NCBI RefSeq assembly: GCF_024298765.1
Contig: NZ_CP101210.1
DNA: 64,000 bases
Reading direction: 5' to 3' (one strand)
Source of the DNA: Escherichia coli
Lineage (GTDB): Bacteria; Pseudomonadota; Gammaproteobacteria; Enterobacterales; Enterobacteriaceae
Shown here: positions 47,821 through 53,800 of the stretch, piece by piece
Position numbering within the stretch: the stretch's first letter is position 1
Layout: each line of letters begins with the position of its first letter
Made by a program: the position numbers

Positions 47821-50800
47821 GTTTAAAAGACATCGGCGTCAAGCGGATGTCTGGCTGAAAGGCCTGAAGAATTTGGCGCGTTAACAAAGCGGTTATGTAG
47901 CGGATTGCAAATCCGTCTAGTCCGGTTCGACTCCGGAACGCGCCTCCACTTTCTTCCCGAGCCCGGATGGTGGAATCGGTAGACACAAGGGATTTAAAAT
48001 CCCTCGGCGTTCGCGCTGTGCGGGTTCAAGTCCCGCTCCGGGTACCATGGGAAAGATAAGAATAAAATCAAAGCAATAAGCAGTGTCGTGAAACCACCTT
48101 CGGGTGGTTTTTTTGTATTTGTATTTTGAGCAATGGCGGTAGAGTGGCGGTGGTGTGGCGATATGCAGAAACAATAATGGTGGTGCACGTGCTGTTTAAG
48201 CTCTAAGGATGAAGCAGAATTCTCCTGCAGCTCCTCCGTATTTCGCATAGTGAACCAAGACTTCGGTTAAACAAAATTTTTCTGGGATTTTTCCACTCGA
48301 CTTCATTTTTCCTCCAGTCATCCACCAAAGGTACCTGCGCTAATCTATCTTTTTTAATCTGACAACATCCTGAGAAAAGGCAAATTCGTCAGATTTACTG
48401 TTTTTTCTGCTGCTTCGAATGCCGATGTCTGCAGTACTGATAAGAGCTCTATCTCTTTGATATAGATCTTTTTTTTGATGAATTGCTCGACATATTATCG
48501 TTATGACACCTTCTTGTTAAAGGTGTTGTACTCCACATCTCGATTTTATGATGTGGGTTATGATTGGTTAGTAATAGAGTGTATCGGTATGCGATGTGGT
48601 TTATTAATGGCAATATGCTTTTGTTTGGTATCTTTTAGTGGGTATGCAGCAACAGGAAAGTCTGATGTTCAGATCAAGAAAGAAATAATTAAAGAATCCA
48701 TTGAATCATATCCAGGCAATTGTGCGTGTCCTTATAATCATGCAAGGAATGGTAGTAGGTGTGGTGGACGCAGTGCATATAGCCGTACTGGAGGGTATGA
48801 TGTGGTATGTTATGAGAGTGATGTTACTGATGAAATGATCCGGCAATGGAAGCAGGAGAATGCTGATTAATTACTTTTGACTGGTTTGTTTTGCGAGCAT
48901 TATGTGTGTTGTTAACGGTACCCTAGCTAAGTGAGAGTTCCAAAATAAAACCCGCAGTTTTTACGCTGCGGGTTTTATTGTTTCTGTCGATGGGATAGGG
49001 TGCCACTTCGGCCAGCCTTGGCAACCGATTGACGGGGGATTACTCCCCCGTCGCGGTTTCCTTACTGCTTACACTGTAAGAACGCCGCAAACTCCGCTCC
49101 CCAGAAGCTCATCCGTATTTCACACAGCGAACCGTGCAGCATCCAGATGATGAGGATTACCGTCACGCAGAACGTGATGGCCGTAAGCGATTTTTGCGAC
49201 ATAGCGCTTGCTCCTTTTTAGGGGAGGCGCTAACCTATCACTTGCTAAGGTTAGATGGTTAGGGCCTCGGTTAAACAGAGATGTTTTCCGGGGCCTTTCC
49301 ACATCTGGCCTTCGGGCATACCCTCCGACCATCAGCCGAAAGGCACCCGCGCGTAATCTATCGTTTTTTTGTTGCTTCGGCAATTCTGCTCGTTAATTCT
49401 GAGGTAAAGGCAAACTCATCTGATTGTTTCCCCTGTGTGACGTTGGCAGTTCATGCCACGGGATACCTTCTGAAGATCGAACGCCTGAGGTGTGTTTCGA
49501 TGTGAATTTATGGAAAGCTTCCAGTGTTGAGAAGCATACGCCGCATTCCAGGTTGTTACACTGGTAATACTTTTGTCGGACGGTGTTTGAATCATTTTCC
49601 GGACGACTTGTGCGGATACGGGCAGATGCGCCACAAAGCGGACAACGGAACATAGCAACCTCCCTTTAGGTGGTGCTATTCTAAACTTCATCAATGCAGA
49701 TTCCAACTCCTTCCCACTTTAAGCGAAGGATGGTGATAAAGTCAGAATATGTTAGATGAAGTCTAAACGGGCGATAAGTTTTCCAATATTTGAATAACAA
49801 CGTGGCAGGATTTTTGTTTATCAATTATCTTACACTTTTAAGTGTAATAAATTTGTTAGTGATGACAATATTGTGAGAGGAGATTATCAATTGAAGATGG
49901 CAAAAAATAACAATGATAAAATGCGGGCAAAGTATAGGCCGTTCATAAATATATGGGAACATCTTCCTTCTGAGTTCAATGAACTCATCAAGACGTTAAT
50001 GGTGCTGATACGGCAAGGGGAAAATGTGGGAGCTCAGCAAAGGGAGCTTGATTCCATCGAAAACTTCAAACACCTGTTAAGTGGATGGAAGCGGGCGCAA
50101 AGGATCATAGCTGATGAACTCATTATCAGGCTTTCTCAAATCAAGGATCTGGAGTTAGAAAAGAATTGTGCCCATTCAAAAAAGGACTATGAAACAAAGA
50201 AGAAGTGTATACGCAATATTGAAAGGACTAGACTAGAAATTAGGATTTTACGTAGGTGCATTGATTCAATTGTATGGGCGATATTCCGCAATGAACACTC
50301 GTCTATAAGACGGTTACCTATAAATAGAAATACTGACAATCTGACAATATTTAATATACATGATTCAATGGTGGTAGCAGATGAAATCAATGCTGATCCG
50401 ATGGCTATAGCTGTTATCACTGATATTACTACGTTTGTACATACTGGTGATTTACTTGCGTTAATACCTCAGCAAGGCATAACTTTAATTGAAATAAAAA
50501 GTGGTAAGAAAAATATAGAGTTTTCAAAGGCGGCTATGTTCTCAGTGCAAAGTAAATGTCTTCATTTTGATGAGATTTATAGAAAAGACCTTGATAAAAA
50601 TGACTTGAAACACTATGACAGAGCTAAGCGTCAACTTAAAAGAGCTCAAAATGTGATAGATGTCATTGAAACTGGTAAGGGATTTGATAACTTTTTTCAG
50701 TCTCAAGTAACAATTCATGACAGAGATTTTTGTCCCGATTTTTATACAGATAAGATTATTGAGCTTTGGTATGAGATATATAACGGTAAAACTTGGGCGA

Positions 50801-53800
50801 TTACTGACATTAATGATTGTTTATTCCTTGGGGCATATATTAATTCTAATATGGGTTTTTGCGGTTTTAATGGATGGATGGAGGTATCTAGAATATCGGG
50901 GAGAGTGTTTAATATTCTTGATAGCTTTTCAGATGCTTTATCACGTCCATTTTTTAGTTTGAACCTACCTGATAAATTGCTTCTGGATATCATTAATGGC
51001 AATCTAATTGTTGTGCTGTGTTTCGATCATCGTCGTTTCGTAGAAAGAGCAAATAAAAAATACCCCGGGATTTATGAGTTATTGGACTTTCCATCTCCGA
51101 AGATTAATCCTATGAGTATGCTTTCCATCAATGGGAAGGGGGTAGTTTCTAGTGTTGATGGACAGAGTGTTTTTATTGGAAATGGTTACGAAACACGGAT
51201 TATTTTTGATCAGCAATATCCAGATAGTCTGATTAAGTGGTCATACCATATGAGTGATCTCAAAAAAAATATTGATAAAAAAAAGCGTAAAATGAAAAAG
51301 GAAACGCAAAGAAAAATAAAAGAGAAAAGAAAACGTAGCAGAAAACAATGCTTAAACTAACACATCTAATGCTTTAATTTGCTTTACTGTTACAATGTCC
51401 GCTTACTGGTACAGGGCGGACTGCCATATTAGATTTGGTTCTATCTCGTAAGAGTGGCCGTTCAGGTCTGCACTAATACATCTGAATGGTTCACTCTGTT
51501 TCTGCTATCCATTCCGGGATTTTTGCTTCAAGCTCAAGCTGAGTGGTAAAGCCGCTGTTATCAATGGTGTGCTCGGCTTTTGCAATAATCCAGTCCTGAT
51601 TATCAATCTCGCTTTTAAATCCTGTTACCGTGCCATGCATTTCGGGGAAGAGTTCTGCGCGTCCGCGTGCCAGTGTGATGGAGAATGATGCGGCTCCGCG
51701 TTGTAGTTGTTGCCACTTTGCCGCCGCTGCGCGTCTTGCTGCCTGCTCGTTCTGATAAGTCTTGCGTAACACAAACACATTGCCTTCCGCGCCTTCCATA
51801 TAATCACCTTCACGGCTGCTGCTTTTCTCTTTTTTCGGTTTTGGCGGTTTGCGGCGTTTCACGCTGACTTTTTTCTTTTTCCCGTAATTAAGATCAAGCC
51901 AGTAAGCGCGTACCCCCGTATACGCCTCGCGGTCAGCAATGCGGAACTGATGGCGATCGCCGCTGCTGCGTGTGATGGCGAACGATGGCAACGGCTGGCC
52001 CTGTGCGTTCACGCCACCGCCGGGCATGATGAATAACAGATTACCGCTTTTTACCGTGGTGATTGCGCCCAGCATTTCCGCCATGCGCGTAAGGAAGGAC
52101 ATGTCACTTTCTTCGGTCTGGTCGGCGTGGTCGATTTCGATATGCATCAGCATTTCGCTGATTTGCGGTTTCAGACCGTACCGATGAGCGATGGCGGATA
52201 CCACACGCTCAACGGTCACATCATGCCAGGACACCTCACGTTTAACGTTAAATTCATCCCGAAAATCTGCGCTTCTGGCTGAAACAGTCAGCCTGTCCGG
52301 CGGTCCTTCGTGTGCGATTTCATCGACAATGTAAGAGCCTTTTTCTGTCAGCGGTTCGCCTTTCCAGCCAATGAGAACCGTCAGGCGCGCGCCCCGTGGC
52401 GGTAGCCGCAACTGACCATCCGCATCATCCAGCGTGATGGTGAGCTGGTCTGCCTCAAATCCCCGGTTGTCGGTCAGCGACAGGCTCATCAGGCGCTCTG
52501 CCACGCCGGACAGCGTTTTACCCTCCGCGAGAATATCAAAATCCGGCATTTTTACGGGGTCTGTGCCCTGACTGAGCAATTGCATGGTGGTGTCGGTCAT
52601 CTGTTCCCTCCCTGTGCGGCATGGTCGCATGTGCGTGCGGCGGGGGTTACTGCTTTTTGTTGTCGCCGGGTCGGGAGAACGGCGCAGGGGTGAGATTACG
52701 CGCGTGGTGGGTGATGATTGTTGCCGAATCATTTAACGGATACAAGGGGCTGAAGCTATGAGTGAAACTCGTTTTCATGGTGCCCGTGTTACGGAAAATA
52801 CCGACCTGGTAACAGCGATTAACGATGTTGATTCCAGCGTTATCGGTATCGTGGCAACGGCGGATGATGCGGACGCGAAGCTGTTCCCGCTGAACAAGCC
52901 CACACTGCTGACCCGCGTCAATGACGTGCTGGGAAAATGCGGGACAACGGGGACGCTTTATCGTGCGCTTAAGGCCATCGCAGACCAGGTGAGCACAAAG
53001 GTGATCGTCGTTCGCGTGGCTGAACACAAAGAAGAAGACGGAAAGACGCAGGATCAACTGGTTATCGGTGGTTCTGAGGATGACGGCAGCTATACGGGGA
53101 TGTATGCGCTGCTTGTTGCAGAGCAGGATGAAAGCATCGGATACCGTCCGCGTATTCTGGCCGCGCCGGAGCTGGACACGGAGGCGGTAACAAAATCCCT
53201 GTGCGTGATTGCGGGTAAACTGCGCGCGTTTGTGTATGCCTCATGTCACGGCTGTAACACGATGGCTGAGGCGATTACCTACCGCCAGAAATTCAACGAA
53301 CGTGAGGTGATGCTTTTATGGCCGGACTTCATCGCCTACAACCCGAAAAGTGGCAAAAACGAAACGTTCCCCGCGCCTGCCTATGCGTGCGGCCTTCGTG
53401 CGTACATTGACCATGAGCAGGGCTGGCACAAATCGCTGTCCAACGTTCCTGTTAAAAATGTGCTGGGAATGTCCAGGCATGTGTTCTGGTCGTTGCAGGC
53501 CGAAGACAGTGATGCCAACAGCCTCAACAACAAAGAAATCACGACCATTATTCGTCGCAACGGGTTCCGCTTCTGGGGCAACCGCACACCGGAAACGAAC
53601 GCCTACATCTTTGAGGTGTATACCCGAACCGCACAGGTGCTGGCTGATTCAATTGCGGAAGCGCAGTTTGAAACCATCGACAGTCCACTGACGCCTGCGA
53701 ACGTGAAGGATGTTATCAGTGCCATCAGGGCAAAACTGGATTCACTGGTTACTGCCGGGAAACTGATTGGCGCGGAGTGCTGGTATGACGTGGTGGATAA

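Follow-up and report, generated by a model that had tools for sequence, protein, structure and literature searches.

A P2-like prophage of Escherichia coli (assembly GCF_024298765.1, contig NZ_CP101210.1) carries, between its genes D and ogr, one gene for a protein of 487 residues, and we propose that this cargo gene encodes a standalone protein that acts for the prophage against other phages and has a nuclease-type active site, a tentative reading to which we assign a probability of about 0.45. The gene was studied within a 64,000-nucleotide (nt) stretch of the contig, called the window here, and all positions are window positions unless a locus is named. Two lines of evidence lead to the proposal. 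The gene lies in a site at which unrelated genes replace one another, two of them recognised by PADLOC, and a handful of residues, arranged in the predicted structure much as in a PD-(D/E)xK nuclease, is invariant across a family that has moved between phage slots and chromosomal islands.

The D-ogr junction as a cassette-like cargo slot

The gap between D and ogr measures 1,837 bp and is filled by a single intact open reading frame (ORF) that runs opposite to the flanking late genes and has upstream DNA of its own. An earlier note on this DNA had described an interval of ∼1.8 kb with one opposite-strand, AT-rich ORF at 49897..51360, and so it proved; the GC content, taken in 400-nt windows, is 0.33-0.39 in the cargo ORF, whereas D and the sheath gene have 0.50-0.57. 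The labels of the flanking genes as ogr and D match the annotation of identical E. coli loci. To describe the junction in other strains we used a megablast search of positions 49300-51700 against 5,426 complete E. coli genomes and read the slot contents from an evenly spaced sample of the ranking. The flanks match 1,238 of these genomes but the entire interval is present in only 16, at 99.5-99.8% identity. Most sampled loci have D and ogr adjacent, with matches spanning ∼605 bp (the two genes lie 42 bp apart in the one locus inspected), and about one-third of the sampled loci with both flanks hold one unrelated gene or an insertion sequence (IS) element instead. The comparison across E. coli prophages thus reveals empty as well as differently filled slots, and the question raised in the earlier note, whether the interval is a recurrent variable cargo position, is answered in the affirmative: the D-ogr junction is a swappable, cassette-like cargo slot.

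The alternative cargo consists of genes for TIR, DUF2971 and ParA-family proteins, a PIN protein encoded on the opposite strand, and hypothetical proteins of 340, 221 and 385 residues, together with IS elements. PADLOC identifies the TIR cargo as bSEFIR (E = 1e-44) and the DUF2971 cargo as the candidate system PDC-S31 (E = 5e-27), and the ParA-family cargo matches weakly. The PIN protein and the three hypothetical proteins (L003 1939-3009, L007 2046-3068, L050 804-1469 and L051 862-2019) have no PADLOC match, and these four may be regarded as further defence candidates.

Alignment of the window with loci bearing TIR, DUF2971, ParA-family, PIN and hypothetical cargo and with one empty locus defines a left boundary segment common to the occupied slots, immediately after which the cargo-specific DNA starts (Table 1). 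The right boundary segment, from an alignment of four cargo types, is common to three of them (the window gene, TIR and DUF2971), has diverged in the ParA locus and is missing at the empty site. Because occupied slots share these boundary segments, which the empty site lacks, we regard the slot as a cassette site, with the module here extending over ∼49735-51490. The right segment contains a hairpin (51397-51421) that appears in the RNA fold, with an overall z of -1.9, and that probably serves as a terminator where the cargo gene and D converge; a simple terminator scan did not call it. In the TIR locus (L002) the cassette lies between degenerate direct-repeat copies of the empty-site sequence (ATTCTAAGTTGCTCA), at 1885-1899 and 3147-3161; a target-site duplication was sought in the window as well, where copies of this repeat are not detectable at ≤3 mismatches. 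Surveys in the literature emphasise the gpA-portal and Z/fun hotspots, and in the accessible portions of papers on P2/P4 hotspots, including Rousset et al. 2022 (PMC9122126), the D-ogr slot receives passing mention at most.

Predicted active site and protein family

Conservation was assessed over 104 family members at 19-67% identity. Only seven residues are invariant in 104 of 104, namely D176, D185, E199, K201, G203, R242 and Q246, and a further set is near-invariant (G63, Q68, D123, W127, R139, G184, N206, G262, D264, G312, Y314, P351, G430 and P442). AlphaFold2 models the full-length protein with a mean predicted local distance difference test score (pLDDT) of 88.3 and a predicted template modelling score of 0.86, and residues 108-456 with a pLDDT of 92.4. 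In the predicted structure the core is laid out as a helix (151-165), strands at 171-174, 186-190 and 194-198, and helices between 204 and 259, and a basic helix (454-486) forms the C terminus. The residue D176 follows the first strand, D185 stands just before strand 186-190, and E199-x-K201 closes the paired strand 194-198 in a tight hairpin, with R242 and Q246 on the helix that follows. This predicted arrangement of D176/D185/E199-x-K201 matches a PD-(D/E)xK site, in that an aspartate and an E-x-K motif are placed on adjacent β-strands. The hhhD-x(n)-ExK pattern pointed out in the earlier note therefore holds as far as D176, E199 and K201 go, all three being invariant, but the canonical "PD" aspartate is more likely D185 (in a GD where the second strand begins), which is also invariant and was not singled out there. 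Given this residue pattern, the motif and the local topology incline us somewhat towards a nuclease.

Several results weigh against this reading. A Foldseek search of the PDB with the full-length model found nothing (best E = 0.4), and searches of PDB sequences with the single sequence, a full-length profile and a core-only profile returned as sole match the GroES-like protein Cpn11 (E = 0.0095). PADLOC-DB v2.0.0 has no match for the query at E values up to 1 and nothing meaningful for 10 diverse relatives, and Pfam likewise has none for the query and none that is meaningful across the 104 members. A scan of the + strand for σ70-like promoters called none. Six family accessions are absent from the indexed full texts searched and four from the DefensePredictor supplements; this absence is a lack of prior validation and no support either.

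The Cpn11 match, which falls over the hairpin, was judged to be a β-hairpin look-alike, and hhalign of the family profile against one PDDEXK_4 protein gave no useful signal. Across Pfam, PDB sequences and NCBIfam there is no profile or sequence similarity to a described PD-(D/E)xK family; NCBIfam matches neither the query nor the 10 diverse relatives, PHROGs (searched with the query) gives two insignificant matches (E = 0.028 and 0.12), and tblastn of the cargo protein against 50,697 deposited phage records finds no match at E = 1e-3. As the earlier note had stated, then, no named homolog is recognised in the libraries searched. Profile and structure searches, of the kind that it had suggested as a check, turned up no confident match to a housekeeping or phage structural family, and Foldseek did not confirm a PD-(D/E)xK fold.

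These same results give room to the rival that survives best, a defence or exclusion protein outside the PD-(D/E)xK class, in which the D/D/E/K/R/Q cluster would form part of a catalytic or ligand-binding domain of new structure, for example one with another phosphoryl-transfer or nucleotide-processing activity. It shares the genomic context with the nuclease proposal and leaves aside the match of residues and topology to the PD-(D/E)xK site, and we consider it rather unlikely. To a similar degree doubtful is a more far-reaching version of the proposal, in which the protein would found a widespread standalone immune family, its site being that of a highly diverged nuclease or else a catalytic fold of a new type, and a homopolymer-switchable basic tail would modulate the activity.

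By HMMER, run exhaustively over 1.84 billion representatives, the family comprises at least 470 clusters at 50% identity (E ≤ 1e-3), 253 of them at E ≤ 1e-10. Most members have 440-490 residues and a few carry an additional N-terminal domain of 160-250 residues. Among the close relatives there are 34 clusters at 90% identity, from Enterobacterales, Aeromonas and Pseudomonas, and a second large protein search with the 104-sequence profile recovered the same close clade only, owing to a word-index limit. In the distant members P0109, P0127 and P0130 (locus L015 8001-10037) the extra N-terminal domain, of ∼250 residues, starts with GILAYGSLIDDPG, a motif that we take to recall gamma-glutamylcyclotransferase/ChaC-like proteins; the domain has no Pfam or PDB sequence match. 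The family, the absence of structural neighbours and the cassette-like D-ogr slot all appear to be undescribed in the libraries and papers searched, and since the model is confident yet lacks a structural neighbour, it would be worthwhile to solve the structure of the protein. Single-gene defence candidates are a well-known class in P2-like hotspots, and with candidate defence families now being found in large numbers the cargo gene is a solid lead and not a surprise.

Genomic context, proposed function and its rivals

Relatives are also found outside the D-ogr slot, in at least five further positions in phages and in non-phage islands (Table 1). In P2-like slots the family gene stands alone between conserved phage genes; outside them a co-oriented gene is sometimes found directly upstream, with no recurring partner. 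In the Dickeya island (L008 6685-7983) a DUF3644 gene stops 18 bp before the homolog, and in the lambdoid prophage (L023 4955-5875) a co-oriented gene for a 306-residue protein (phrog_19951) lies directly upstream; either may be an occasional partner, most contexts being without one. No conserved housekeeping locus was seen among the relatives' loci; the earlier note had named presence at conserved non-prophage loci as a finding that would speak against its proposal. The family thus recurs in hotspots and islands of mobile elements, with bSEFIR and PDC-S31 in the very same slot and Gabija-like neighbours elsewhere, and this context points to anti-phage defence. The earlier note went further and ranked the gene as the strongest candidate in the window for an undescribed defence function; the pattern of locations is indeed typical of defence cargo, but the ranking remains guilt by association.

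As a prophage-borne anti-phage nuclease, the cargo gene would form a lysogenic-conversion ("moron") cassette of ∼1.75 kb in the D-ogr slot, and the prophage would express the protein to exclude other phages. The N-terminal helical hairpin might mediate oligomerisation, whereas the central site (D176/D185/E199/K201 with R242/Q246) would be metal-dependent and would cut invading or replicating phage nucleic acid or, alternatively, that of the cell itself in an abortive response. A sensing or regulatory role may fall to the C-terminal α/β region, and the Lys/Arg tail, dispensable though it seems, could add non-specific affinity for nucleic acid.

Among known systems, Shedu (SduA) is a single-gene defence based on a PD-(D/E)xK nuclease. 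The cargo protein resembles Shedu in being one large standalone protein with a D...ExK-type site and probably regulatory domains, found on mobile elements and in defence islands. In contrast to Shedu, however, its putative catalytic core is central, between the helical hairpin and the α/β domain, and there is neither homology nor a match to the PADLOC Shedu model; SduA_C (DUF4263) is hit in one of the 104 members below threshold (E = 0.03) and in none at E ≤ 0.001. Type IV (Mrr-like) and other standalone restriction-type PD-(D/E)xK enzymes share with it the GD...ExK on a β-hairpin and the single gene that has no methyltransferase partner, although no sequence or structural match to a solved restriction-fold protein and no recognisable DNA-modification reader domain were found. 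With P2 old, tin and Z/fun and the systems of P2/P4 hotspots the gene has in common that it is non-essential, lies in a variable slot of a P2-like element, is low in GC and has its own upstream DNA, which are hallmarks of prophage-encoded exclusion genes; it shows no homology to old, tin or Z/fun in the tblastn search of phage records (P2 included if among them), and it occupies the D-ogr slot and not the gpA-portal locus of old and tin. The closest parallels in arrangement are bSEFIR and PDC-S31, which in other E. coli strains have the same slot, boundary segments, orientation and single-gene layout, although the proteins themselves are unrelated, with a TIR/SEFIR-type and a DUF2971 domain, respectively.

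Context also bears on the possibility that the gene serves the phage itself, as a counter-defence gene, as a nuclease used in taking over the host, or through an action on satellites such as P4. Carriage almost exclusively in phages and mobile islands would suit such a role, and two preprints describe interaction of P2-like phages with P4-type satellites and mixed cargo in hotspots (bioRxiv 10.1101/2024.10.15.618418; bioRxiv 10.64898/2026.02.27.708500). However, among 1,511 P2 elements covered in the latter preprint, anti-defence genes are rare (28 elements) and defence-associated genes are common. The presence of bSEFIR and PDC-S31 in the same slot, the relative in an Aeromonas chromosomal island that adjoins a Gabija-like pair and the lack, by eye, of an Ogr-type late-promoter motif (TGT-N12-ACA) upstream of the cargo gene likewise argue against a phage-serving role, which we consider improbable. 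Least probable is a free-standing endonuclease of the selfish homing type, which would insert itself between conserved phage genes and benefit neither phage nor host. A nomadic distribution, over many positions between genes of P2-like and lambdoid phages and in either orientation relative to the neighbours, would fit, as would an AT-rich gene with nuclease-like residues. However, at least seven unrelated genes occupy this same slot within the same boundary segments, so that the slot and not the cargo gene is recombinogenic; a protein of this length that has a coiled coil and extra domains does not resemble the known homing enzymes of free-standing kind; relatives lie in non-phage islands as well; and the family occupies many different sites instead of a gene-specific one beside its own cleavage target.

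If the anti-phage role of the cargo protein were validated, an unnamed and fairly large protein family would join the anti-phage repertoire, and the D-ogr junction of the E. coli P2-like lineage would count as a defence slot of cassette type, bounded by conserved segments, from which at least four more unannotated genes could be mined.

Gene start, tail and prophage surroundings

The identical cargo protein is present on 180 public contigs, on every one of which it is labelled "hypothetical protein." The longest frame of the ORF opens at GTG 49873, and TTG 49891 is probably a likelier start than the annotated ATG 49897, because its 8-nt spacing from an AGGAG sequence is ideal, homologs are 2-3 residues longer at the N terminus and a 489-residue annotation exists. 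Farther upstream, the palindrome given in the earlier note as a candidate operator (49831..49846) is real and one base wider on each side, and its arms can be extended to 19 nt at 79%. It is only mildly unusual: when the 162-nt region upstream was shuffled, an arm of ≥8 nt arose 4.3% of the time (p ∼0.04), and 33 such palindromes occur in the whole window; it was not found upstream of homologs elsewhere. The operator role was rejected as unsupported, the palindrome being weakly significant and not conserved, and the module having no regulator.

Table 1. Positions of the cargo gene, its parts and the slot boundaries in the window, and loci at which relatives occur
Feature	Position or locus	Strand	Basis or remark
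ogr/Delta-like zinc-finger late activator gene	49393..49653	-	ORF; label from 99.8%-identical E. coli loci; conserved left flank
Left boundary segment, ∼55 nt (ATTCTAA...ATTCCAACT...CTTTAAGC)	49679..49733		Alignment
Perfect 8+8 palindrome TTACACTT-tt-AAGTGTAA	49830..49847		50 nt upstream of ATG; in cargo-specific DNA
AGGAG, Shine-Dalgarno-like	49878..49882	+	8 nt before in-frame TTG 49891, 14 nt before ATG 49897
Cargo gene, 487 residues (489 if TTG 49891 is the start), unnamed family	49897..51360	+	Intact ORF
N-terminal all-helical region, residues 1-130; long hairpin, residues 53-94 and 98-129	49897..50286	+	AlphaFold; conserved G63, Q68, D123, W127
Most conserved core, residues 146-260: helix, three-strand meander, helices	50332..50676	+	Conservation, AlphaFold
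Codon of invariant D176	50422-50424		
Codon of invariant D185	50449-50451		
Codon of invariant E199	50491-50493		
Codon of invariant K201	50497-50499		
Codon of invariant R242	50620-50622		
Codon of invariant Q246	50632-50634		
C-terminal α/β region, residues 261-452	50677..51252	+	High-confidence prediction; no recognisable relative
Lys/Arg-rich helical tail, residues 454-487 (18 Lys/Arg of 34)	51256..51357	+	Sequence, AlphaFold
A8 run in tail-coding region	51277-51284	+	A7 allele gives frameshift, tail lost
Right boundary segment, ∼100 nt, with hairpin GTCCGC (51397-51402)...GCGGAC (51416-51421)	51395..51490		Alignment of four cargo types
Gene D (late control/tail protein)	51491..52732	-	Longest ORF; homologous D genes ∼1.1 kb; conserved right flank
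Relatives in D-ogr slot, E. coli	L017-L020		
Relatives between gpU and tail fibre	L009-L011, L021		Same prophage architecture (Raoultella type, 69% identity)
Relatives between gpV and gpS	L029, L030, L037, L039, L045		
Relatives next to int or ogr	L022, L031, L032, L036		Near attachment site (att)
Relative in lambdoid prophage	L023		Between Ren-like exclusion gene and RusA/nin region
Relative in Aeromonas chromosome	L047		Beside Gabija-like AAA_15/AAA_21 ATPase and UvrD-helicase pair; RES and pP_pnuc nearby
Relative in Dickeya integrase island	L008		With DUF3644, Fic, PDDEXK_4
Relatives in Pseudomonas comM-associated islands	L012, L046		

At the other end of the gene, the extremely basic C terminus highlighted in the earlier note is present but is not a core feature of the family. 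The character of the tail is kept in the close clade alone; more distant members are without it. In E. coli O111:H8 strain 8E the A8 run is an A7, giving a 465-residue product that lacks the tail; the A7-type allele is found on 80 contigs as compared with 180 for the full-length form, and a match shorter by 1 bp in 7 of the 16 complete genomes fits the A7 allele, strain 8E being the one checked. Because distant homologs lack the tail and many E. coli copies lose it through a frameshift in the homopolymer, it is dispensable or switchable, and slippage could drive on/off switching of the tail. Another strain has a truncation of the cargo protein to 340 residues.

The window is E. coli chromosome with uvrC-pgsA and then tRNA-Gly/Cys/Leu (47745-48047), after which the P2-like prophage adjoins tRNA-Leu and extends beyond the end of the window. 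A block of sheath, tube, gpE, tape-measure and gpU genes (52758-57832) lies on the opposite strand to D and ogr and to the baseplate and fibre genes, as it also does in L001 (23459-29044). Relative to what we take to be the canonical P2 order, the block from sheath to gpU is inverted. The inversion places a second cargo slot between gpU and the fibre-assembly gene, occupied in L001 by a "transferase." The stretch from ogr to tRNA-Leu holds a Hok/Gef toxin gene (49062-49202, - strand) and an ORF of 94 codons (48589-48870, + strand) whose product has a signal-peptide-like N terminus. Beyond hok, other strains (L003, L004 and L006) have a Com regulator and a DNA methyltransferase instead, and because different genes are held there the prophage end near hok is also variable.

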